Source: Patescibacteria group bacterium
Lineage (GTDB): Bacteria > Patescibacteriota > Microgenomatia > Daviesbacterales > UBA10151
Assembly: GCA_023379125.1 (NCBI GenBank)
Contig: JAMCSY010000004.1
Location: 122,588-186,587 of the forward strand
Length of the DNA stretch: 64,000 nucleotides
Reading direction: 5' to 3'
Part shown: piece after piece, positions 4,599 through 46,743 of the stretch
How positions within the stretch are numbered: position 1 is the first letter of the stretch
Layout of the letters: every line of letters begins with the position of its first letter
Notes under the pieces: generated by a model
The model's input: the letters and a program-made list of their open reading frames with translations, nothing else
Database searches by the model: none
Told to the model about the DNA's origin: nothing
Made by a program: the position numbers and the translations under genes

Positions 4599-6029
4599 AT
4601 GGAGCCTCATCCAGTACCACAAAACATAACTTCCTTTGAATTTCATTTAGTTGGGGATATGACACTCAAGCAATTTGGCTATCTAGCTACTGGTTTAGGT
4701 ATTGCTTATTTAATTTTTGTCTTACTTTTTAATACAATACCACTTTTAGCAATCACCCTCATTGCTATTTCGGCAGGTTCTGGGTTTGCTTTTGCCTTTC
4801 TGCCTCTTTATGATCGCCCACTATCACACTGGGTCTCAGCTTATTTTCGAGCTATTTATTCTCCCACTAAACGCTATTGGCAAAACCCTTTAAGTCCCAA
4901 CAGCACAGTTTCTGCTGATGATCCAGCTTTTAGAAATAGACTCAAAGACTTTTTAAGTACAATCGTTTCAGCTGAGCCACAGGCACCAACTCCAACCTCT
5001 GCTGAAAACCTAATTATTCAAAATCAACCATCACCAACTCCAGCAAGCCCCAGCACTAATAAGCCTGTAACTCTAGCAGATCAAAACTCAATACCATCTA
5101 ACTCGCAAATAGAGCAACCTCAACCTACGAGCAACTCCTCTCAAGCTTCTTCTATCACAGCTCAAAACAACCAAGAGCCAGTTGTTTCTTTTTCACCTAC
5201 TAACTCCACTCCGAATAACCCAACAGCTGTTAATACTTCCCCATCTCCCCAGCCAATCACCAGCCCCTATTTTGCCTCCACCCAACCCACTCAGCAAACA
5301 ACTTTTAATCAGGTAACCACCACACAGCAGACAATACCTATGATTGGAGTTACTAATCCAGCACCTATAACTCCTCTGCCAGTTGTTCATCCCCCTGCTC
5401 CACCGAGCTCTACTCCCCCATCTCCTCAAGACATGCCCAGGCCAGAAGAGCTAACCGAGCTTGTCAAACTAGCTCAGGAGGCACGTTCTGTACAATCCAA
5501 AGTAGCAGAAACTCAACGGCGGATTAATGAAATCAAAGCTTCAATCTCCACCCAGGGTAGTCAAAGTGCTGATTATACCGAACAGGCTCAGCAAATGTTC
5601 TCTAACCTGCAAAACTTAATCAAAGAAACTGAGGACCTGTCGACTAAAACCTCACAAATTGTTAAAACTAGTCCAAAAGCTAAGGCGCCAAAGGTCGTAG
5701 TTGTTCAACCCACCAAGCGCACACCAACTCAAGTTTTACTAACCTCAACCCCTAATGTGATCAATGGCATCGTAACAGATCCCGAGGGTAACTACTTAGA
5801 TGGCGTCATTGCCATTATCCATAACAAAGATAATTTACCTGTTAGAGCTTTAAAGACTAATAAGTTAGGCCAGTTTGCAGGCGCTACTCCTCTACCTTCC
5901 GGAGTCTATACCTTAACTCTAGAAAAAGACAATTTGGAGTTTGATTCCATTCAAATTACTTTAAACGGTGAGGTTTTGCCACCAATTAATATCTCAGCCA
6001 AGAGAGGAGTGACAGTTTTAAATGATTAA
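4599..6029 (+). CDS. Membrane protein with four parts. They are an N-terminal 2-TM hairpin (VirB3/PrgI-like position and topology), a long P/T/S/Q-rich low-complexity linker, a coiled coil and a C-terminal carboxypeptidase-regulatory-like beta-sandwich domain.
   Basis: Two adjacent hydrophobic helices at residues 25-70. Disordered segment at about 100-270. Coiled-coil heptads at about 275-340. C-terminal motif GIVTDPEGNYLDGVIAII...LPSGVYTLTLEKD is typical of CarboxypepD_reg/Cna-B-like folds. An 8-nt overlap with the next gene suggests an operon. Confidence 0.5.
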   Translation: MEPHPVPQNITSFEFHLVGDMTLKQFGYLATGLGIAYLIFVLLFNTIPLLAITLIAISAGSGFAFAFLPLYDRPLSHWVSAYFRAIYSPTKRYWQNPLSPNSTVSADDPAFRNRLKDFLSTIVSAEPQAPTPTSAENLIIQNQPSPTPASPSTNKPVTLADQNSIPSNSQIEQPQPTSNSSQASSITAQNNQEPVVSFSPTNSTPNNPTAVNTSPSPQPITSPYFASTQPTQQTTFNQVTTTQQTIPMIGVTNPAPITPLPVVHPPAPPSSTPPSPQDMPRPEELTELVKLAQEARSVQSKVAETQRRINEIKASISTQGSQSADYTEQAQQMFSNLQNLIKETEDLSTKTSQIVKTSPKAKAPKVVVVQPTKRTPTQVLLTSTPNVINGIVTDPEGNYLDGVIAIIHNKDNLPVRALKTNKLGQFAGATPLPSGVYTLTLEKDNLEFDSIQITLNGEVLPPINISAKRGVTVLND

Positions 6030-30786: not shown

Positions 30787-30877
30787 AATAATTGATTGAG
30801 CTAATTGTAAACAGTTTGTCTTATGCTAGCAAGGTTTCTTGCTGGTTTATGATGTTGAAAACTAAACGGCAATCTGT

Positions 30878-32164
30878 TTATCGATTAACCAGCGGTAGTC
30901 TAGTTTTGTAACTTGGGCTACATATCCATGTTTGGTTTGACCATTGAGCGGTATGGTTTTGATCATAATAGCTTCCTCCAAACCTCATTACCTCGCCGGT
31001 GAGGGAATTCATTGCTGCTGCTGGACGCCCCATCGCTTGTGGGTTAGCAGCTGAAGCTATTTTGAGCCACATTTGGGAATCCTCGTCATACTCAACAGAT
31101 TCGTTGTAGGGAGGATAGAGGATGAATGTAGGCTCTCCTGAGTGTAACACTAACTGTCTTCTCTTAATGTCGTAACCACCTCTAACTGCCCCCGCATAAT
31201 CGACTCTGGGGTTACTGGATAGCGTGCTTATAATATTGGTTTCATCAAGATGGATTTGCCATAACTCATTTGAGTAAATACCGCTACCATCTCCCCGATC
31301 GTAACCTTCACCCCCATAGAGGTAAATATTTTGATCTTCCGGTTTCACATAAGCCAGAGGTTCAAAAACAGCGCGATAGGTTTCACCATTACTATAGCCT
31401 CGGCCAAGAATGTACCAATTTTTGCTGTAGTAATTATTAGGAAGTAACAGACAGTAAGTATTATTCCCTAAAGTCACATCTTTGCCAAATGCCCCGCCGA
31501 ATATCCAAACTGATTTTGTTTCCGGATGGTAAGTCATACCTATACCCTGCAAAGCTGGTTTGTCCTGAGGATAGTAACAGTCGGGTATAATTTCCTGCCA
31601 ATGGTTTGTTTTGTTATCAAAGAGATAAAACTTATCTGAAATATCAAAGTCACCCTTAGGTTGTAGGATCACTCCGCCGTAGATTAATAACCCCAAAGGA
31701 GTTTCGACCATTTTATGGCCATGTAAACTCAAAGTCGATCCTTCTTCAAGTTGCTGCCAATGATTTTCTTTAAATTCCCAAGTTTGGCTGTGGTTTGCTC
31801 CATATGCATAACCTCCATGTAAAATAAAGCTCCCTCTTTCCTGGCTGAAACAACAAGCTGAGCGATAGGCGGGAGGAGGTGCGCAGGGGGTTTCTACCTG
31901 ACGCCAAAAACGGCTATCGGTAGTTTTTTCTGGTAAGTGACCAAACTCGGTAACACTTTCCGTCTGAGGATTAGTAGCATCTTTTTTAATTATCAAATCT
32001 CCAGGAAAAACAATTGGCGAAGCAGTTGACTCTGGAGAGTGAATAGAAAATGGCTGTGGCATAAATATACTGCCAGCAGCAAGACCAGCTGTTTTGACAA
32101 AACTTCTTCGGCTAATTTTTGGAATCTCTTTGTCAACGCGGTCTTCGCTCATTAAGTTTATCAA
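30878..32164 (-). CDS. Secreted Kelch-repeat beta-propeller protein with a Tat-like signal.
   Basis: The N-terminus ISRRSFVKTAGLAAG resembles the S/T-RRxFLK Tat motif. Repeated GG/Y..GG Kelch-like blades. Confidence 0.55.
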   Translation of the reverse strand: MINLMSEDRVDKEIPKISRRSFVKTAGLAAGSIFMPQPFSIHSPESTASPIVFPGDLIIKKDATNPQTESVTEFGHLPEKTTDSRFWRQVETPCAPPPAYRSACCFSQERGSFILHGGYAYGANHSQTWEFKENHWQQLEEGSTLSLHGHKMVETPLGLLIYGGVILQPKGDFDISDKFYLFDNKTNHWQEIIPDCYYPQDKPALQGIGMTYHPETKSVWIFGGAFGKDVTLGNNTYCLLLPNNYYSKNWYILGRGYSNGETYRAVFEPLAYVKPEDQNIYLYGGEGYDRGDGSGIYSNELWQIHLDETNIISTLSSNPRVDYAGAVRGGYDIKRRQLVLHSGEPTFILYPPYNESVEYDEDSQMWLKIASAANPQAMGRPAAAMNSLTGEVMRFGGSYYDQNHTAQWSNQTWICSPSYKTRLPLVNR

Positions 32165-33123
32165 TAAGGAACGCAGTTGTAGTAATTTTCATTAGGAATA
32201 AGGGGTAAATTCATGTTAACTGAGGATTGTACGTTGTTTAGAGTAATAGTATGAGTATTGTAGCTTTCGTGAATTTTATAACCAGACAAAGCAGTATAAC
32301 TTGGTGTAATGGTTAAACCTACTTGGGGGTCAATAACTTTAGTCAAACTATAGTGACCGTTGCTGTCAGTAGTGACTGTGGCATAGTTATAAATGTTTCC
32401 GGGGTCCTTTTCAAAACTAACAGGTACACCGGCGATACCTTGCTCATTTGGTTCTTGCACATCATTACAATTATAATCTTTAAAAACCTGCCCGCTGATT
32501 GTTACCACTGTCCCCATTGGTACAGTAACTGTTTTGGAGCATGTTGGGGTAAGGGTTCCGTCGGACAATTTTAGTTGGAGCTTAGTGCTGAAGTTGCCGT
32601 TACTGGGATAGGTGTGAGCAATGTTGGTATTGGAAAGGGACATCTCGGTATCCCAGGTGCCGTTGCCGTCAAAATCCCATTGTGCGCCAGTCACATATTG
32701 GTTGTTATGAGTAGCGGCAGAATAGACTAACTCGATAGTCAAAGGGTTGTCAAAATTGGAATTGGTGTCCATTGGCGTAGCTAATGTGTTGATGGTACAG
32801 GTGGCGCTGGGAGTTGGAGTGGGAGTCAAAGTCGGAGTGGCTTTGGGTGTAGGTGTGGCAGTGGGCTTTTTAATTGTGGTAGGAGTAGGCTGTTGGGTAG
32901 GTAAAAGGGTTTTTGGCAAAGTAGGGCTTGGTGACAAGATTGCTAAATTTAGGCTCTCCTGAGTAGCATCTGAAACAGCCTCCAAATTATTGCTCAGAGT
33001 TGATTGGTGATAAAAATAATACCCTAATCCTCCTCCGACAAAAATAACCACAGTGCTAACTAATAGCAGTAATAGTGGTGCAAAACCAAGTTGTCTCATC
33101 GAATTTCTTAATTTATCTAGCAA
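32161..33123 (-). CDS. Secreted protein with a PT-rich linker and Cna-B/SdrD-B-like beta domains.
   Basis: Signal anchor, (PT)n linker, and motif GQVFKDYNCNDVQEPNEQGIAGVPVSF...TDSNGHYSL. A 4-nt overlap with the Kelch gene suggests an operon. Confidence 0.5.
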   Translation of the reverse strand: MLDKLRNSMRQLGFAPLLLLLVSTVVIFVGGGLGYYFYHQSTLSNNLEAVSDATQESLNLAILSPSPTLPKTLLPTQQPTPTTIKKPTATPTPKATPTLTPTPTPSATCTINTLATPMDTNSNFDNPLTIELVYSAATHNNQYVTGAQWDFDGNGTWDTEMSLSNTNIAHTYPSNGNFSTKLQLKLSDGTLTPTCSKTVTVPMGTVVTISGQVFKDYNCNDVQEPNEQGIAGVPVSFEKDPGNIYNYATVTTDSNGHYSLTKVIDPQVGLTITPSYTALSGYKIHESYNTHTITLNNVQSSVNMNLPLIPNENYYNCVPY

Positions 33124-33137
33124 TAATAGTGTAGCAA

Positions 33138-34499
33138 TTGTCCTGCATTACCTCAAGTTGGTATATAATTAAAATTGTGGGAAAGATTGTGGCCATTGTT
33201 ATAATAGTAGCTGTTGCCTTAGGGGTGGTTTTTTGGAAGTTTGGCTGGCCCTATTTAACAGGCGCAAGTCAGCCCAAGGAAGTAACTTTAACTTATTGGG
33301 GTTTGTATGACGATGAGGCAATCGTCAAACCGCTACTTGATGATTATCATCTGTCCCATCCTAATGTGCGAGTCAATTATGTTAAACAATCACTGACTAA
33401 CTATCGCTCCAGGTTACAAACTCAATTACAGGCAGGAACTGGGCCAGATTTATTTTGGACCAATAATGCTTGGTTACCAATGATGATTTATGATAGTGCG
33501 CCTCTTCCCAGTAGTGTGATGTCTCTGGGGGATTTTAGTAAAACTTTCTATCCTGCAGCTAAAGCGAGCTTAACTAATCAAAATCAAATTTATGGTTTAC
33601 CTTTAGAGATTGATGGGTTGGCACTATACTACAATGAGGATTTGCTAAAAGGGGTGAATGTATCTCCTCCCACTTCTTGGACAGATTTTGTTAATGATGC
33701 TAAAAAGATGACAGTGCCAGATCAATATGGTCAAATTCAAACTTCTGGGGCAGCGATGGGAACAGCCACTAATGTTGCTCATTGGTCAGAAATTGTGGCG
33801 ATGCTTTTTATGCAGCAACCCTCGGCTGATTTAAGCAAACCAGATAATAGTTATGGTGGAGATGTGCTGAGGTTTTATACTAATTTTGTGACTAATCCTC
33901 AAGATAAGACTTGGGATGTCACACTTCCTTCATCCTTACAGATGTTTGAGCAAGGCAGGTTAGCTTTTTATTTTGGAACTGCCAGGGAAGCAACAATGAT
34001 CAAACAAGCCAATCCTAATCTACATTTTAAGGTGGCTACTGTACCTGTTCTACCTCAGAGTAAACAAGTCTCATATGCTGACTTTTGGGCAGTTGCTGTT
34101 TCTAACCGCTCAGCCAACCAGGCAGCTGCTTGGGATTTTGCCAATTATTTAACCTCACCGCGTGCTCAACAGTTACTAGCTCAAGAAAAAACTCAAGCTG
34201 GTGGATTTGGACAACCCTATCCACGAGTAGACATGGCAGGTTTACTAGCAAGTGACCCATTTTTGAACCCCTTTGTTGTGCAGGGACCAAACTATCAAAG
34301 TTGGTATTTAAATTCAGATACCCAAGACGCTGCGATTAATGATGAGATTGTGGCACTTTATGCCAAAGCTGTGCAAAGTGTTTTAGGTGGTGGTAATCCA
34401 CAAGATAGTCTGCACAATATTAGCGGAGATTTAACTAAAACAATCGATAAATATTTCCATCTTGGAGTGACTCCTGTGGAAAGTAATACTATATTCTAA
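33138..34499 (+). CDS. ABC transporter substrate-binding protein (family 1, sugar-type). No permease or ATPase gene is adjacent.
   Basis: Signal anchor, then TLTYWGLYDDEAI and SBP_bac_1-like motifs. The start is uncertain: TTG at 33138 or GTG at 33177. Confidence 0.65.
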   Translation: MSCITSSWYIIKIVGKIVAIVIIVAVALGVVFWKFGWPYLTGASQPKEVTLTYWGLYDDEAIVKPLLDDYHLSHPNVRVNYVKQSLTNYRSRLQTQLQAGTGPDLFWTNNAWLPMMIYDSAPLPSSVMSLGDFSKTFYPAAKASLTNQNQIYGLPLEIDGLALYYNEDLLKGVNVSPPTSWTDFVNDAKKMTVPDQYGQIQTSGAAMGTATNVAHWSEIVAMLFMQQPSADLSKPDNSYGGDVLRFYTNFVTNPQDKTWDVTLPSSLQMFEQGRLAFYFGTAREATMIKQANPNLHFKVATVPVLPQSKQVSYADFWAVAVSNRSANQAAAWDFANYLTSPRAQQLLAQEKTQAGGFGQPYPRVDMAGLLASDPFLNPFVVQGPNYQSWYLNSDTQDAAINDEIVALYAKAVQSVLGGGNPQDSLHNISGDLTKTIDKYFHLGVTPVESNTIF

Positions 34500-35427
34500 G
34501 CGCTGGTAAGTTTACCAGTTGCACTTCTGGCTCAAGTTTAATACCAAATTTGTCCCATACTTTTTGCTGAGCAAGTTGGGCTAATTGATAAAAATCAAAG
34601 GCACTCCCGTTTCCTAAATTGATAAATAAATTAGCGTGGTTAGGAGAGACCTGGATTTGGCCAACTTGAGCTTCTTTTAAACCAGCTGTTTCTAGTAGAA
34701 AACCGGCAGGAATTTTGCCAAAAGTTATTTTTTCTGAAGGGATTTTTCTAAGAATAGTTGGATCTAAATCCTGAGCGATAACATTTTTGAAAAAACTGCC
34801 AGGGCATTTAAGGGTTGGCGGATATTTTGCGAGTCTTAAAGCCAATGTTTCTGCAGCCTCTTTTTTAAGAATTGAGGCATCAGCAGTGGGAAGTTGGAAA
34901 ACTGCTTCTAAGATAATTAAAGATTGATGTTTAAAAGCACTATCACGATAACCAAACTTACATCTTTTTGTATCCCAGGTCTCTTGCTTATTCGTTTTGC
35001 TATTAAAAAAGGTCACTTCTACTAAGTAATCTGAGATGGTTTGCCCATATGCACCAGCATTACCATAAATGGCTCCGCCAACAGTGCCAGGGATACCTGT
35101 CATTTTCTGTAAACCAGCAACCCCCTGTTTGATAGTAAAATCAATTAGCTCTTGTAAAGCAGTGCCGCTTTGGACAAGTATCTTTTTTTGCTGATTTTTG
35201 ATGCCAGATAAGGCATTTTTAATAATTAGTCCGGGATAACCCTCATCGGCAATTAGCAGGTTACTTCCGCCGCCAACTACTAAAAATGAAATTTTTTGAT
35301 CCTTAGTTGATCTGATGGCGTTGGTTAACTCCTGAGCAGTCTTGGCCACGAAGAAATATTGAGCAGATCCACCAATCTGTAAGGTGGTAAAGTTTTTTAA
35401 AGGAATATTCTTTTGCCAGTTACTCAT
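34489..35427 (-). CDS. murB: UDP-N-acetylenolpyruvoylglucosamine reductase.
   Basis: FAD-binding N-terminus FTTLQIGGSAQYF...VVGGGSNLL and a MurB C-terminal domain. Confidence 0.85.
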   Translation of the reverse strand: MSNWQKNIPLKNFTTLQIGGSAQYFFVAKTAQELTNAIRSTKDQKISFLVVGGGSNLLIADEGYPGLIIKNALSGIKNQQKKILVQSGTALQELIDFTIKQGVAGLQKMTGIPGTVGGAIYGNAGAYGQTISDYLVEVTFFNSKTNKQETWDTKRCKFGYRDSAFKHQSLIILEAVFQLPTADASILKKEAAETLALRLAKYPPTLKCPGSFFKNVIAQDLDPTILRKIPSEKITFGKIPAGFLLETAGLKEAQVGQIQVSPNHANLFINLGNGSAFDFYQLAQLAQQKVWDKFGIKLEPEVQLVNLPALRI

Positions 35428-35445
35428 TGAGAAAATTATACGCTC

Positions 35446-35475
35446 TTGACAAGAAGCTAGAAATATTCTTAAAAT
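35446..35475 (+). promoter_or_regulatory. Putative sigma70 promoter for the groES operon.
   Basis: TTGACA at 35446-35451, an 18-nt spacer, then TAAAAT at 35470-35475. No CIRCE element is present here. Confidence 0.35.
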
Positions 35476-35520
35476 AGCAAACGTTAAAGCTTACTGCCAG
35501 AAACTGCTTCAGAAAAAAAT

Positions 35521-35859
35521 ATGCCAAGACCGAAAAAAATTGCTACCAATAAACCAACTGCTACTTCCAAGCTTTCTATTAGACCATTAATGGGCTATTG
35601 CTTAATTGATCCTGCGAGTGCTGAAGAGACAACAGCTTCTGGGATTATCTTGCCAGAGTCTGCTCAGGAAAAACCAGCAATGGGGACTGTTATCTCGGTG
35701 GGTGATGACCAAGTGCTGGAAAATGGCAAAGTAGTCAAAGCTCCGGTTAAAATTGGTGATAAAGTTTATTTTAAAAAATGGGGCGGAGATGAGATAAAAG
35801 TAGCAGGCAGGGAATTAAAATTAGTCAAATTTGATGATTTAATGGCAATTGTGGAGTAA
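35521..35859 (+). CDS. groES: Co-chaperonin GroES.
   Basis: IRPLMGYCLIDPASAEETTASGIILPESA matches the GroES core. An N-terminal basic extension is possible, or the start is internal. Confidence 0.85.
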   Translation: MPRPKKIATNKPTATSKLSIRPLMGYCLIDPASAEETTASGIILPESAQEKPAMGTVISVGDDQVLENGKVVKAPVKIGDKVYFKKWGGDEIKVAGRELKLVKFDDLMAIVE

Positions 35860-35861
35860 AA

Positions 35862-36170
35862 ATGAAATTGGATTGGGTACCAGTGGTAGGATCGCTGCTG
35901 GCCGGAACGAATAACATTGAAGGAAAATTAGCTGTTTTATATGATGAGCGGGAACTACTATGGGATGAGATTTATGATGCAGCTAGAAGGCAAGTGGCTG
36001 GTAGGCGTGTGGGAAAAAGTTTTGCCAGACGTTTGAATGTTGAGTATCTAGGAGTCTTGAAACTAATTGCAGATTTGGAAGGCAATGATGGAGAAATATT
36101 TTATCTAAGAGGGTTGGAAAGAGTTCTTAATGAAGGGGTAACGAAAGCTCCTTTCCGAGAAAGAGAATAA
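35862..36170 (+). CDS. Hypothetical 102-aa protein inserted between groES and groEL.
   Basis: It starts 2 nt after the groES stop, which suggests translational coupling. No family is recognised. It is Arg/Glu/Gly-rich. Confidence 0.5.
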   Translation: MKLDWVPVVGSLLAGTNNIEGKLAVLYDERELLWDEIYDAARRQVAGRRVGKSFARRLNVEYLGVLKLIADLEGNDGEIFYLRGLERVLNEGVTKAPFRERE

Positions 36171-36222
36171 TCTGCTTGATTTTTAAGAAAAATTAGGATA
36201 TATAGTTAAAACTAAAAAATAT

Positions 36223-36567
36223 ATGTCAAAAGAACAAGAGCAATTTCGACCAAGAGAAGAAACCGATAGAGTGGTGAGAGCTGCTCAGAATTATTTAGCA
36301 TTCTCAGAAATTTTTAGTGGTGGACGATTACGTGTTAATCGTATTCGACAGGCACAGGATCCGACCACGATGATTGGAGAGCTGATGAGCGGAGATGGAA
36401 GTGATCGAGCTGATTTGGTAGTAGCAGCTGGTTTTGCTTTCAGCTTAGGTGTGCTTGAAGCAATAAAGTATACTCAGGGTAAAGATAGCTCAATTGTGGA
36501 AGGATATTTGGAAAGAGGAAGAGAAATAGTCAGAATAGCAGAAGAAATTATGAGGAGGGATATCTAA
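36223..36567 (+). CDS. Hypothetical 114-aa protein inserted between groES and groEL.
   Basis: Second orphan ORF in the groES-groEL gap. No family is recognised. Confidence 0.5.
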   Translation: MSKEQEQFRPREETDRVVRAAQNYLAFSEIFSGGRLRVNRIRQAQDPTTMIGELMSGDGSDRADLVVAAGFAFSLGVLEAIKYTQGKDSSIVEGYLERGREIVRIAEEIMRRDI

Positions 36568-36631
36568 AGTGTCAAAAATTTTAAGCAAAGCTTGAAATTT
36601 TTATCAAAAAAGTTGATATAAGGAAAATTGT

Positions 36632-38257
36632 ATGTCAAAAATTTTAGAATTTGATGGTAAAGCCAGAGAAAAATTATTAAAAGGAATTAATACCTTAACA
36701 GAGGCTGTGGCTTCCACTTTGGGCCCTAAAGGGAGAAATGTGGCTTTAGATAAAAAATGGGGGGCTCCAAGTGTAGTTCATGATGGGGTAACTGTAGCTA
36801 AAGAAATTGAATTAGAAGATCCTTTTGAGAATATGGGAGCACAGCTAATCAAGGAAGCAGCTTCTAAAACTAATGATGTAGCTGGAGATGGAACAACCAC
36901 AGCTACTATTTTGGCTCAAGCAATTGTTTCAGAGGGACTAAAAAACATCCAGGCTGGAGCTAATCCAATGATTTTAAGACAAGGTATTGAAGCAGCTGTA
37001 GAAAAATTAGTAGACACTCTGCAAAAGATGAGCAAGAAAATCACCACCAAAGAAGAAATTACTCAGGTAGCCACTATTTCTGCTCAAGATCCAGTTATTG
37101 GTGAGAAAATTTCTGAAGCGATTAGCAGAGTGGGCAAAGATGGAGTGGTGACTGTAGAAGAGGGTAAAACCATGGAAATGTCTGTTGATTATAAAGAAGG
37201 CATGGAGTTTGATAAGGGTTTTGCCTCACCTTATTTTGTAACAGATACTGACCGCATGGAAGCTTCTTTAGAAGATGCTTATATTTTGATTACAGATAAA
37301 AAAATCTCCAGTATGCAGGAACTATTACCCTTCCTAGAAAAGTTTATTCAAGTTTCCAAAAATTTGGTAATCATTGCTGATGATATTGAAGGTGAAGCTT
37401 TAGCTACTTTGATTGTGAACAAACTAAAAAATATCTTTAATGTTTTGCCAGTGCAAGCACCTGGCTTTGGTGATCGTCGTAAAGCGATGTTGGAAGATAT
37501 CGCTATTTTGACTGGGGGAATGGTTATTTCTGATGAAACTGGACGAAAGTTTGAGTCAGTGGAGATTACTGATTTAGGCAGAGCTGGACGGGTGACCTCC
37601 ACCAAGGACACAACTTTAATTGTTGATGGCAAAGGTTCAAAGTCTGCCATTGATGGCAGAATTGCCCAAATTAGAAAAGAATTAGCTAAAACTGATTCTG
37701 ATTTTGATAAGGAAAAATTAAATGAAAGATTAGCCAAACTAACTGGTGGGGTAGCAGTGATCAACGTTGGAGCAGCCACGGAAGTGGAAATGAAGGAGAA
37801 AAAGGAACGGGTGATTGATGCGGTGGCCGCGACTCAAGCAGCTATTGAGGAAGGCATTGTCCCAGGTGGAGAGATTGCTTTAATCAGAGCTGCCAAATCT
37901 TTAAGCCAGGTTAAACTAAATAACACTGAGGCACAATTAGGAGTAGAAATTGTTAAGAAAGCTTTAGATATTCCTTTTAGAAAGTTAGTGCAAAATGCTG
38001 GTATGGATGATGGAGTGGCTTTGGCTAAAGTGCTAGATTCAGATGGTGATAAAGGAGTAGATGTACTTGATGGTCAGGTTAAGGATATGGTGAAGGCAGG
38101 TGTTATTGATCCTGTTAAGGTGACTAGATCAGCATTGCAAAATGGGGCTTCTATTGCTGTCATGGTAATGACTACTCAAGTTTTGATCACTGACAAACCT
38201 GAACCGACTCCACCTCCGCCACCAATGCCTGCTGGTGCAGGTATGGGAGAATATTAA
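36632..38257 (+). CDS. groEL: Chaperonin GroEL.
   Basis: 541 aa. ATP-site motifs AGDGTTTAT and GGVAVI, and a C-terminal GGM-like tail. AAGGAAA SD upstream. Confidence 0.95.
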
Positions 38258-38408
38258 GCCTGAGCAAGGCTGAATACCTCTAAATATCCTAGAAGCAAAG
38301 GTTTACGTGCTGGATTGTCATGTAATAAAGTATTGGGAAGTTTATGCTGGCAGAAAACCGTAGACTCTTAGTGCACGGAAGCTTATACTAGAGTTAAACA
38401 GTTTCTTT

Positions 38409-39005
38409 ATGGCTAAACTTCATTATCATGAGGCGATTTCCGAAAAAGACAAACAGGTTTTTGCCAGATTTCTAGCAGAAGATGAAGAGCTGATTTTGGC
38501 TACTGGTTTTGGTAAAACTTACTTACGCTCTCGTTTTATAGTAGCTTTGGGCTGGCCTGGATTTGTCTTTATTGCTTTTGGGTTGGGCTTGAGCTATTTA
38601 TTACAGTTTAATCCGGCTTATGGTTTACTTGGAGGTTTAATAATAGCTGCAGTAGCTGCTTTGCTGCGCACAATTCATCTTTACCATGCTAATCGTTATC
38701 TGCTAACTACCAGAAGAGTGATTATTAAAAAAGGTGTTTTTGCAGTTCAGGTTACCTCAGCTTTGTATGACAAAATTACTCACATTGAAGTTGATCAATC
38801 ATTTGTAGATAAGGTTTTTTATCACCATGGGACAATTATTGTGAACACTGCTGGAATGAATAAAGGTGAGATCACGATTACTTTTATTGATTATCCCATC
38901 GAGTTTAAAAATTTACTAGAAAGATTAATTAATCGCGAACGTGAACAATATGGTTTTCACTCAGGCCCAGTTTTAACTGTTGAGGGAGAAGTGGTAGAGG
39001 ATTAG
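38409..39005 (+). CDS. Bacterial PH-domain (bPH_2, YdbS/YdbT-like) membrane protein.
   Basis: Two TM helices followed by the LLTTRRVIIKKGVFAVQVTSALYDKITHIEVDQS bPH_2 pattern. Confidence 0.65.
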   Translation: MAKLHYHEAISEKDKQVFARFLAEDEELILATGFGKTYLRSRFIVALGWPGFVFIAFGLGLSYLLQFNPAYGLLGGLIIAAVAALLRTIHLYHANRYLLTTRRVIIKKGVFAVQVTSALYDKITHIEVDQSFVDKVFYHHGTIIVNTAGMNKGEITITFIDYPIEFKNLLERLINREREQYGFHSGPVLTVEGEVVED

Positions 39006-39979: not shown

Positions 39980-40408
39980 TTATTTTTTATTGGTTACCTT
40001 GACTGTGATTTTTTTGGGTGGTCTTTGCTCTGCTTTGGCAAACTTTAATCTTAAGACCCCATTATCAAAAACTGCTTCAGGTTCTTTGTCAGAAACTACC
40101 CCATCTGGTAATCGGAAAGAGTAGTTAAAGTTTTGAGACATTGAACTCATAAAATAGCGTCTTTTATTCTTTTCTTCCTCGTCTTGCTTGCTAGCTCCGG
40201 AGATTCTGACCACTCCGTCATCTCCAACGGTTACATCAATTTGATCTTCACTCAGACCAGGTAAAGCTGCTTCAGCGGTAATAGCATCCTCTGTTTCGTA
40301 GATGTTTAAGCCCTGACCTAAACGATTAAAAATTGGTAAAGTTGGAACATCAAAATCATCATCCAGTAAAGAAGATAGATTCCAAGGATTCCATCTGACT
40401 ATTGCCAT
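39980..40408 (-). CDS. Hsp20/alpha-crystallin small heat-shock protein.
   Basis: ACD-domain motifs. C-terminal GVLRLKFAKA, similar to the IXI-type tail. Strong SD AAGGAGGTG upstream. Confidence 0.85.
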   Translation of the reverse strand: MAIVRWNPWNLSSLLDDDFDVPTLPIFNRLGQGLNIYETEDAITAEAALPGLSEDQIDVTVGDDGVVRISGASKQDEEEKNKRRYFMSSMSQNFNYSFRLPDGVVSDKEPEAVFDNGVLRLKFAKAEQRPPKKITVKVTNKK

Positions 40409-40685: not shown

Positions 40686-40712
40686 TTAGCAGTAATATAG
40701 CGAGAGTGCTAA
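40686..40712. promoter_or_regulatory. CIRCE-like inverted repeat, a possible HrcA operator.
   Basis: TTAGCAGTA-N9-GAGTGCTAA compared with the CIRCE consensus TTAGCACTC-N9-GAGTGCTAA. The right arm is perfect and the left arm matches 7 of 9. It lies about 275-280 nt from both flanking divergent starts. Confidence 0.3.
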
Positions 40713-46245: not shown

Positions 46246-46743
46246 TTAAAGGTGGGGGTCAAAGAGATTCATCAGTCTTTCTCGATAGTACCTAATAGCA
46301 TCTTTGTGAAGATTTTCTAATACTAGCTGCTGTGTCTGTGTTTCTTGTAAGAACCAGATTTCTAAGTGTTGAGTTAACCGAGTCAAGACTGGCTCACTGT
46401 TTTCACCCAAAACTGCCTGAGCCCAAACTTCAGCCTCTGGTGTGGCTATTAGCTCGTGTTGAGGGACTTTAGCCAACAGCCCAGCTTCAACTAGTTCTTC
46501 AAGGTGCTGAGCTAATTCCTCACTGTATATAAATCCTCTTTGCGGGTTAATCACTTCGAAAGTATAGCGACTAGTAATAAGCTTCTCAGTACTTGCTTTA
46601 TAAATGGTCTGGTGGATTAGGTAGTGAGGCAAAAAGCCCTCCTGGGTGCGATTGGCAGCTGTCAGAATTAAAAGCGCACGTCCGCGATCAGCAAACTGTT
46701 TTTGATTTAAGACTTTGGCAATCTCAAGTTCTCGCTGGCCCAT
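46246..46743 (-). CDS. Hypothetical 165-aa protein.
   Basis: ORF is co-oriented with tatD. No family is recognised. Confidence 0.45.
   Translation of the reverse strand: MGQRELEIAKVLNQKQFADRGRALLILTAANRTQEGFLPHYLIHQTIYKASTEKLITSRYTFEVINPQRGFIYSEELAQHLEELVEAGLLAKVPQHELIATPEAEVWAQAVLGENSEPVLTRLTQHLEIWFLQETQTQQLVLENLHKDAIRYYRERLMNLFDPHL

Follow-up and report, generated by a model that had tools for sequence, protein, structure and literature searches.

The groES-X-Y-groEL operon

groES and groEL are a textbook case of an almost invariant gene pair. Here, we present an analysis of a locus at which this pair is interrupted, located in a stretch of 64,000 nucleotides (nt) of contig JAMCSY010000004.1 from a Patescibacteria group bacterium (assembly GCA_023379125.1), which we refer to as the window. 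At this locus, groES and groEL are separated by a total of 772 nt that hold two small genes, which we call cassettes X and Y, and all four genes are on the + strand (Table 1). By comparison with related loci, we show that the groES-groEL junction of this lineage has, as read from its sequence, the properties of a recurrent, exact, and rapidly changing slot for such cassettes.

Table 1. Positions of the genes and signals of the groES-X-Y-groEL operon in the window
Feature	Position	Strand	Remarks
Sigma70-like promoter, TTGACA-18-TAAAAT	35446..35475	+	upstream of groES; 11/12 consensus positions match
groES (co-chaperonin Cpn10, 112 amino acids [aa])	35521..35859	+	Cpn10, E=5e-27
GGAG, predicted Shine-Dalgarno (SD) sequence of X	35853..35856		in the final groES codons, 5 nt before the X ATG
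Cassette X (102-aa orphan)	35862..36170	+	ATG 2 nt past the groES TAA
X-Y spacer, 52 nt, AU-rich	36171..36222	+	weak hairpin at ~36175-36197, z=-1.5
Cassette Y (114-aa orphan)	36223..36567	+	starts ATG TCA AAA, as does groEL of the same genome
AGGAGG	36553..36558		within the last codons of Y
Y-groEL spacer, 64 nt	36568..36631	+	possible relic groEL start, hairpin, AAGGAAA
Mini open reading frame (ORF), 8 codons	36569..36595	+	GTG TCA AAA ATT TTA AGC AAA GCT TGA; starts 1 nt past the Y stop and 10 nt past AGGAGG
AU-rich hairpin, 13 bp	36574..36602		in the Y-groEL spacer; -13.3 kcal/mol, z=-3.1
AAGGAAA, SD sequence of groEL	36620..36626		five nt ahead of the groEL ATG
groEL (chaperonin Cpn60, 541 aa, intact)	36632..38257	+	TIGR02348, 755.8 bits (cutoff 582)

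A first-pass annotation of the window had described the gene order and its coordinates, the start of X directly behind groES, the SD sequence of groEL, and a promoter upstream of groES that is not accompanied by a CIRCE (controlling inverted repeat of chaperone expression) operator; all of these features were found as described. The promoter-like site is the presumed promoter of the whole four-gene operon; because promoter-like sites as a whole are no more frequent than in shuffles, we treat it as a consensus match only. Within the groES-groEL region, neither promoter-like nor terminator-like sites exceeded the shuffle expectation. Because no convincing internal promoter or terminator separates X and Y from groES and groEL, the co-transcription with the chaperonin genes that the first-pass annotation had suggested is plausible. 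In an Rfam scan of positions 35000-39000, nothing came near the gathering score.

Based on two codon models, X and Y are native-looking coding sequences. With a model trained on 42 long ORFs of the window, X and Y scored 0.135 and 0.147 in frame, and the other five frames were all negative; for comparison, real-gene chunks had a mean of 0.23 and a 5th percentile of 0.114, and shadow ORFs averaged -0.10. With a clade model trained on 129 flanking genes from related loci, the scores were 0.285 for X and 0.260 for Y versus a real-gene mean of 0.186. Stop-free frames on the same strand cover 89% of the 772-nt spacer compared with ~14% in shuffles. Comparison with the flanks, which the first-pass annotation had proposed as a check, gave a native picture: the GC content of the insert is 0.378 versus 0.39-0.40 for groES and groEL, and the Arg codon usage of X and Y is the same as that of groEL. 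On these grounds, we rejected a foreign origin.

The proposed richness in Arg, Gly, and Glu was borne out. X (R 10.8%, E 10.8%, G 9.8%, K 4.9%, isoelectric point [pI] 5.6) and Y (R 12.3%, E 10.5%, G 8.8%, K 2.6%, pI 5.3) are the two strongest Arg outliers among the 64 ORFs of the window, with R/K ratios of 2.0 and 4.0, respectively, versus a typical 0.2-1.0. Among the small ORFs of the window, just one more has such a composition; it lies outside the groESL operon (46246-46743, - strand), encodes 165 aa, has an R/K ratio of 1.5 and 12% E, starts with MGQRELE, and has no Pfam match. Structures were predicted with AlphaFold2 (AF2) from single sequences without an alignment. The model of X has three long helices and a short N-terminal helix, with a predicted local distance difference test score (pLDDT) of 76.6; in a fold search against the PDB it had no match at E<1, generic helical bundles being all that was returned. 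The model of Y is all-helical and of low confidence (pLDDT 54). Neither signal peptides nor recognizable toxin folds were found.

X and Y are also family-less, as had been noted from the sequence. Neither matched Pfam, NCBIfam, PHROGs, or PADLOC (E<=1 for Pfam, NCBIfam, and PADLOC). For X and Y, a word-indexed search of 5.8 billion proteins returned one copy each, 98% and 100% identical, respectively, from metagenome-assembled genomes (MAGs) labeled "Patescibacteria group bacterium", and nothing else. When 1.84 billion representatives were scanned exhaustively with HMMER, for which Y was the query, X having been searched with the word-indexed tool only, the scan returned Y itself and one artefact, a match to P0005 (E=7.7e-9); this target is a perfect 11x tandem-repeat protein, and the score sums one weak 37-residue match eleven times. 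Altogether, the databases searched contained no homologs of X or Y from outside their own species and no conserved X-Y pair elsewhere. The four-gene arrangement is not an assembly artefact because it is the same in three assemblies, i.e., the window, GCA_023485375.1 (99.74% identical), and Logan SRR10278331 (identical to the window). X and Y are intact in the second strain (GCA_023485375.1), which differs from the window by two nonsynonymous changes in X and none in Y (two substitutions in all).

The groES-groEL junction and its cassettes in related loci

In a cross-phylum set comprising the 80 best GroEL loci with one genome per species, groES was present in 74, and the groES-groEL spacer was 6-228 nt long in 74/74. 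A family-level set was obtained by scanning a metagenome collection with GroES and consisted of 80 loci with GroES 59-75% and GroEL ~72-82% identical to those of the window; after deduplication, it contained 64 unique loci with both genes, including the window and the loci L004 and L005. Related loci lie between housekeeping flanks on contigs of up to 1.1 Mb (0.5-1.1 Mb). The spacer was 15 nt or less in 24/64 loci, 16-149 nt in 5/64, and 150-2763 nt in 35/64, and nine further contigs end within an ORF that starts right after groES. Each long spacer has one to approximately five ORFs on the same strand, which encode 52-187 aa. In 34/35 unique long gaps, L118 being the exception, the operon strand carries the main ORFs. 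Same-strand stop-free frames cover 95% of the 35 long gaps; the corresponding values are 15% for shuffles and 56% for the antisense strand. Many loci have a single cassette rather than a pair. From this comparison, we take X and Y to be one instance of a lineage-wide slot.

The two closest relatives with the synteny of the window (murB-groES-groEL-bPH) are L005 and L004. L005, from a Candidatus Daviesbacteria MAG (GroEL 77% identical), has a 3-nt spacer, while L004 (GroEL 78%) has a 221-nt spacer filled by an unrelated ORF of 68 aa with the start position of X. We use the label "Daviesbacteria" for the lineage after L005 and the source of a cassette in L147. Thus, when the arrangement was followed in related genomes, as the first-pass annotation had advised, the slot was found to recur, while X and Y themselves are not conserved. 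GroES and GroEL are equally conserved in filled and empty loci.

Comparison of the loci shows the slot to be exact, extending, at the level of sequence, from the groES stop codon to the groEL start codon. In empty loci, groES ends with ...GCAATTTTGGAGTAAAAAT, and the groEL sequence ATG GCA AAG follows directly. In filled-versus-empty alignments, the ATG of the first cassette is at the position of the groEL ATG in empty loci; this is also the case for the start of X. The later junctions consist of a stop codon, an A-rich/SD stretch, and an ATG, and the SD sequence is often encoded by the last codons of the upstream cassette.

We found no common ancestry for the cassettes as a group: 52 gap ORFs fell into 47 blastp clusters, and phmmer --max with profile iteration gave families of 2-4 members only, in which X and Y remained singletons. 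Accordingly, a single, hyper-diverged cassette superfamily was rejected. A Pfam family (PF05635) was found in one cassette only, that of L143, and neither X nor Y matches it. A cassette of Candidatus Daviesbacteria RIFOXYD1_FULL_41_10 is an orphan in the 5.8-billion-protein database as well. Using the clade codon model, 49/49 unique cassettes scored best in frame, with none below the 5th percentile of real genes. The cassettes have a GC content of 0.384 versus 0.382 for groES and an Arg codon usage equal to that of groEL. An enrichment of SD-like sequences within the cassettes, by which they might load ribosomes, was rejected, as the observed/expected ratio is 1.15 and the same as in groEL.

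The cassettes often begin with M[AT]E (ATG-RCA-GAA). This start is present in 25/49 cassettes compared with 2/257 long ORFs (p=6e-21) and 1/140 size-matched small ORFs (p=1e-16) of the same loci, for which the first ATG of each ORF was taken as the start codon; it is therefore frequent in the class and not universal. Codon 2 is GCA or ACA in 30/32 cassettes with Ala or Thr at this position versus ~29% in genome-wide usage, and codon 3 is GAA in 27 cassettes; for groEL itself, codon 2 is GCA in 29 cases, GCT in 15, and GCG in 8. This biased choice at codons 2 and 3 argues that the start signature sits at the nucleotide level. Relative to size-matched controls, the cassettes are rich in Arg (8.6% versus 4.4%) and Glu (9.6% versus 6.9%), poor in Lys (4.9% versus 8.5%), have fewer hydrophobic residues, and have a lower median pI (5.5 versus 6.7). 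X and Y match the class in composition (Arg/Glu-rich, Lys-poor, and acidic) as well as in the exact position from groES stop to groEL start.

Pairs of related loci document how fast the slot changes. At 93.3% GroEL identity, L100 and L146 have a cassette in common (67% identity), and the cassettes of L098 and L100, also at 93.3%, are unrelated. L149 and L159 (GroEL 91.7%) have 2 and 3 cassettes, respectively, none of them in common, and the pairs L094/L097 (GroEL 97%) and L114/L134 (GroEL 94.6%) each consist of a filled and an empty locus. In L120 and L147 (GroEL 78%), cassettes of family A are still detectable as related at 29% identity. The cassette common to L100 and L146 has a ratio of nonsynonymous to synonymous substitution rates (omega, dN/dS) of 0.29 (Fisher p=4e-4) and an in-frame indel of 11 codons; omega of groEL is 0.04. 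The cassette common to L098 and L111 has a conserved core of ~40 residues and diverging ends; its dS equals that of groES, and its dN is tenfold higher. By these measures, the cassettes are protein-coding and change at nonsynonymous sites 3-10 times as fast as groES and groEL. Both replacement and rapid divergence in situ contribute to their orphan status.

Traces of past rearrangement are visible at several junctions. In the window, there is a colinear alignment between two segments, the X-Y spacer followed by the ATG TCA AAA of Y and the Y-groEL spacer followed by the ATG TCA AAA of groEL (repeat families D3 and D4). The score of this leader duplication was reached by 0/232 AT-rich genomic controls under two of three scoring schemes and by 0.9% under the third. 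We counted the duplicated leader plus ATGTCAAAA as evidence for junction duplication in the window. The first five codons of the mini-ORF in the Y-groEL spacer (GTG TCA AAA ATT TTA, 36569-36583) are an exact 14-nt repeat of groEL codons 1-5; taken alone, this repeat is not significant (p ~0.15-0.25). The mini-ORF overlaps the 13-bp hairpin, and it may represent a former groEL start that was displaced, or encode a leader peptide. Among related loci, L086 has a complete groES, a 12-bp hairpin, and a relic of a second groES 3' end (RIDDLMAILEE*), followed by a MAE cassette; L101 has a relic TTTAGAATAAAAATATGGCAGAA junction ahead of its second cassette; and the 84-nt spacer of L123 is a 24-codon stump homologous to the 65-aa cassette of L124.

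Other candidate relics did not hold up. The 63 nt before groEL in the window are not a tandem duplicate of the first 63 nt of groEL, as only 16/48 positions past the first 15 nt are identical (shuffle p=0.56), and relic groEL starts in the gaps of relatives were not found above chance. We also rejected the idea that the cassettes are out-of-frame or antisense copies of groES, groEL, or the flanks: with blastn and tblastx, 0.49 Mb of related sequence yielded no matches beyond relics of junctions and cassette homologs from other loci. In three otherwise different loci, the window (36583-36596), L099 (4322-4356), and L111 (4310-4342), a (T)AAGCAAAGCTTG motif is located just past a stop codon at the junction; it contributes to small hairpins in the first two and not in L111.

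Individual slots have unusual contents. The largest array (L147, 4293-7046) spans 2763 nt and has approximately five same-strand ORFs, including two paralogous cassettes with the common C-terminus IG(D/G)R(R/K)IP(L/V)NVAD(D/S)FKGLK(L/P)PVIGRGDFNI, indicating that cassettes can duplicate within an array; at ~4680-5400, this array has only antisense ORFs. In L110 (4322-4428) and L130 (4310-4429), a palindromic element resembling a dispersed repeat (GTCATCCTGAGGGCGAAGCCCGAAGGATCT...TTCACTTCGTTCAGAATGAC) fills the junction (107-120 nt) without an ORF. L086 (448-500) has a perfect 12-bp hairpin and half of this GTCATCCTGAGGGCGAAGCCCGAAGGATCT...TTCACTTCGTTCAGAATGAC motif. These repeats suggest that the junction also attracts non-coding repeat elements. 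In L143, the slot is occupied by a gene of the 23S rRNA intervening sequence (IVS)/Avd type, which encodes a four-helix bundle (930-1286; PF05635, E=1.6e-29) and has neither the usual cassette junction nor the M[AT]E start.

Origin of the cassettes and alternative explanations

X and Y are best explained as genuine, translated, fast-evolving accessory protein genes. With moderate confidence, we favor the explanation that they are operon-hitchhiking accessory genes in a lineage-specific, rapidly turning-over groES-groEL cassette slot of Daviesbacteria-like Patescibacteria. According to this model, the groES promoter would transcribe groES-X-Y-groEL as one mRNA. X would be translationally coupled to groES by the GGAG in the last groES codons and the 2-nt spacer, while Y and groEL are each preceded by a copy of the AU-rich leader. 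Across the lineage, as the comparison of loci shows, the slot has from zero to approximately five co-oriented, tightly packed small ORFs, and its occupancy shifts between genomes at GroEL identities of 93-97%. Based on the relics in the window, L086, L101, and L123, we suggest that cassettes are gained in events that duplicate the junction, i.e., the translation-initiation region and the first codons, that deletion removes them, and that they are swapped by recombination with anchors in groES and groEL, the conserved flanks. The products would be small, soluble, acidic, Arg/Glu-rich, helical cytoplasmic proteins. They are likely dispensable for the function of the chaperonin because the slot is empty in 24/64 loci, including L005. 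The hitchhiking genes would gain strong, stress-linked expression, and any benefit that they confer would be specific to the lineage rather than a conserved co-chaperone role.

The first-pass annotation had offered two explanations for X and Y. A conserved role as co-chaperone or client adaptor is unlikely, given that there is no homolog outside the species, that L005 is empty and L004 has an unrelated ORF, and that the slot is empty in 24/64 loci. The other proposal, i.e., a small selfish insertion into a highly expressed operon, comes closest to what we found; it holds for the insertion into the operon but not for a single landing, as the slot is recurrent and lineage-wide and has signatures of its own.

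Several observations weigh against the explanation favored here. The leader duplication in the window is moderately significant, with a shuffle p of 0.005-0.06 depending on the scoring scheme. Y has no SD sequence within 15 nt of its start. X starts with ATG AAA TTG (MKL) and Y with ATG TCA AAA GAA (MSKE), and thus neither has the M[AT]E start. The common composition and N-terminus of the cassettes could reflect a common function, which a pure hitchhiker model does not predict. The sole diverged copy of X and Y is too close (99.7% identical) to read selection from, and the cassette common to L098 and L111 has an omega of 0.80, which is not significant and near-neutral overall, suggesting that some cassette sequence may be unconstrained. 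Moreover, co-transcription and translation of X and Y are deduced from sequence, and the occupancy of ~55% describes the 80 top GroES matches from a single metagenome collection rather than an unbiased survey.

A more far-reaching reading is that the junction is a dedicated gene-innovation locus, that is, an integrase-less, junction-templated cassette array inside an essential chaperonin operon. Here, proteins would be born or captured in a process that supplies the common ATG-RCA-GAA start along with a second copy of the translation-initiation region, would at once be co-expressed with a chaperonin that can buffer their folding, and would then be rapidly diversified and replaced, X and Y being two young products. 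We offer this reading tentatively and regard it as rather unlikely.

Alternatively, the cassettes could be translated bridges. DNA arriving at the junction would be tolerated only as an open, translated frame, which lets coupling bring ribosomes to the start of the essential groEL and prevents transcriptional polarity; of its amino-acid sequence, only solubility and lack of toxicity would matter. The 95% coverage by open frames on the same strand, the very short A-rich/SD junctions, and the frequent encoding of the next gene's SD sequence by cassette C-termini, as with AGGAGG in the last codons of Y, are consistent with this idea, as are the hydrophilic, acidic products with few hydrophobic residues, the near-universal orphan status, and the omega of 0.80 in L098/L111. 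However, the omega of 0.29 in L100/L146 (p=4e-4), the good conservation of the ~40-residue core in L098/L111, and the recognizability of family A at 29% identity across a GroEL identity of 78% argue against it. Bridges would also leave unexplained why insertion is frequent in this lineage only, and they fit poorly with the long untranslated spacers (52 and 64 nt) in the window itself and with the ORF-free palindromic repeats that make up the 107-120-nt junctions of L110 and L130. We therefore consider bridges an unlikely explanation.

A closer tie to the chaperonin is conceivable, in which the cassettes are a hyper-diverged single functional class, e.g., modulators of GroEL/GroES, adaptors, or obligate clients, made stoichiometrically with the chaperonin. 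Their invariant position within the operon on the same strand, the common composition and M[AT]E-(R) N-terminus of otherwise unrelated cassettes, the purifying selection in one pair, and codon scores like those of highly expressed genes support this idea. It is difficult to reconcile with a copy number from zero to approximately five and a length of 52-187 aa, with the failure of profile iteration to yield a superfamily, and with the 24/64 empty loci, which include close relatives; in addition, X has no fold match, and GroES and GroEL are equally conserved whether the slot is filled or empty. Taken together, these observations make a functional tie of this kind distinctly improbable.

X, Y, and the other cassettes might also be small toxin-antitoxin, anti-phage, or host-interaction modules, their hypervariability resulting from an arms race. 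X and Y do form a pair of small adjacent genes, the extreme diversity and rapid turnover of the cassettes resemble those of defense and counter-defense loci, and an Avd/23S-IVS-type four-helix-bundle gene occupies the slot of one relative. However, PADLOC, Pfam, and PHROGs gave no match, many loci have a single cassette rather than a pair, no signal peptide or recognizable toxin fold was found, and mobile-element genes are absent within +/-6 kb, and we consider such modules very unlikely here.

Finally, that X and Y are spurious ORFs in an expanded non-coding spacer would agree with their lack of homologs, the lack of a nearby SD sequence at Y, and the low AF2 confidence for Y, but has next to no probability in view of the codon signal in frame only, the same-strand open-frame coverage (89% of the spacer in the window and 95% of the 35 long gaps, versus 15% in shuffles), the purifying selection and in-frame indel in a homologous cassette pair, and the intactness of X and Y in a second strain. 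The first-pass annotation had reasoned that unconserved ORFs without a ribosome-binding site would be spurious; X and Y are indeed unconserved; as a class, however, the arrangement is conserved, X is preceded by GGAG, and the coding signal is strong.

The favored explanation, i.e., hitchhiking genes in a cassette slot, can be set against known systems. As in a canonical groESL operon, the Cpn10 gene is upstream of the Cpn60 gene on the same strand behind one sigma70-like promoter, and both genes are intact. A CIRCE/HrcA operator upstream of groESL is typical of many non-proteobacterial lineages; unlike these, the window lacks an upstream CIRCE, and its junction has 772 nt with two extra genes versus 6-228 nt in 74 species representatives. 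At the sequence level, the slot resembles integron cassette arrays in that its small ORFs vary in number, are mostly orphans, and are promoterless and co-oriented behind one promoter, with great diversity and fast turnover. It differs from them in that there is no integrase gene (intI) within +/-6 kb of the window operon and no attC-like sites, the junctions of the 49 cassettes being a stop codon, an A-rich/SD stretch, and an ATG, and the window spacers holding only AU-rich hairpins that are not common to relatives. Moreover, the slot is part of an essential operon, in which translation has to continue into groEL, and its cassettes are native in composition and codon usage.

Phage morons, similarly, are small accessory ORFs that are present or absent between conserved genes and hitchhike on the surrounding transcription unit; unlike morons, the cassettes are on a cellular chromosome with housekeeping flanks and have no promoter or terminator of their own and no deviant composition. 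X and Y differ from a type II toxin-antitoxin pair in having no toxin or antitoxin domain and in not being a conserved pair in other genomes. The four-helix-bundle genes of 23S rRNA IVS and Avd (PF05635, PF22296) are likewise genes for small helical proteins in a highly transcribed, conserved locus, and L143 is an exact case; however, X and Y do not match them, and neither the cassette junction nor M[AT]E is present at the L143 gene. Conserved flanks and a replaceable middle also characterize the variable islets that lie between conserved core genes and are exchanged by flank-anchored recombination. The duplicated groES 3' end of L086 is as expected of one-sided homologous anchoring, but the slot differs from such islets in its size of 0.2-2.8 kb within one operon, its single-junction precision, and its common start signature.

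More than half of the genomes sampled from this lineage lack the adjacency of groES and groEL, the break being invariably at the same junction with nucleotide precision, and the inserted orphans look native and have start-codon context and amino-acid composition, but not sequence, in common. If the slot is real, it would provide a natural system with many independent replicates and anchors on both sides in which to follow the origin, persistence, and replacement of orphan genes, and could show how an essential downstream gene stays translated through changing upstream cargo. For annotation, it is relevant that such ORFs in Patescibacteria are labeled "hypothetical protein", with no hint of a positional class. 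The searchable literature gave nothing relevant on genes between groES and groEL, on this slot, or on Daviesbacteria chaperonins. According to one paper, groESL is normally bicistronic, and groEL has no neighboring groES in 770/4,861 genomes (PMC5406781). The latter is a phenomenon different from the slot.

Other features of the chaperonin genes and their surroundings

The GroES proteins of this lineage have a basic N-terminal extension of ~19 residues (residues 1-19 in the window, 35521-35577, MPRPKKIATNKPTATSKLS), which reads MPKVKKxxS... in relatives, and the Cpn10 domain starts at residue 20. While many GroEL proteins end in a Gly-Gly-Met repeat tail, the C-terminal tail of GroEL in the window is Pro-rich instead and comprises 20 residues (38195-38254).

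CIRCE was not found upstream of groES, and the sole CIRCE-like site in the 64 kb is an inverted repeat at 40686-40712 (+ strand) with the sequence TTAGCAGTA-N9-GAGTGCTAA; it has 2 mismatches, with 0.03 such sites expected by chance. This site is in the hsp20-PEGA intergenic region beside hsp20 (39980-40408, - strand). Because this lone site adjoins hsp20 and none precedes groES, HrcA-type control may apply to hsp20 and not to groESL in this organism.

Based on the Pfam families of the genes within +/-6 kb of the operon (LigT, VanW, SBP, MurB, Cpn10, Cpn60, bPH_2, M23, HSP20, PEGA/SH3, and UbiA), no mobile-element or integrase gene is present in this region. A strain-variable islet with genes for surface proteins is located 2.4 kb upstream of groES. 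At ~30853-33231, the window is non-homologous to positions 2081-3370 of L001, a 99.7%-identical strain. The L001 version is ~1.3 kb long and has a family-less 108-aa ORF, while the ~2.4-kb version of the window encodes a Kelch-repeat beta-propeller protein (30878-32164, - strand) and a PKD/SdrD-B-like protein (32161-33123, - strand).

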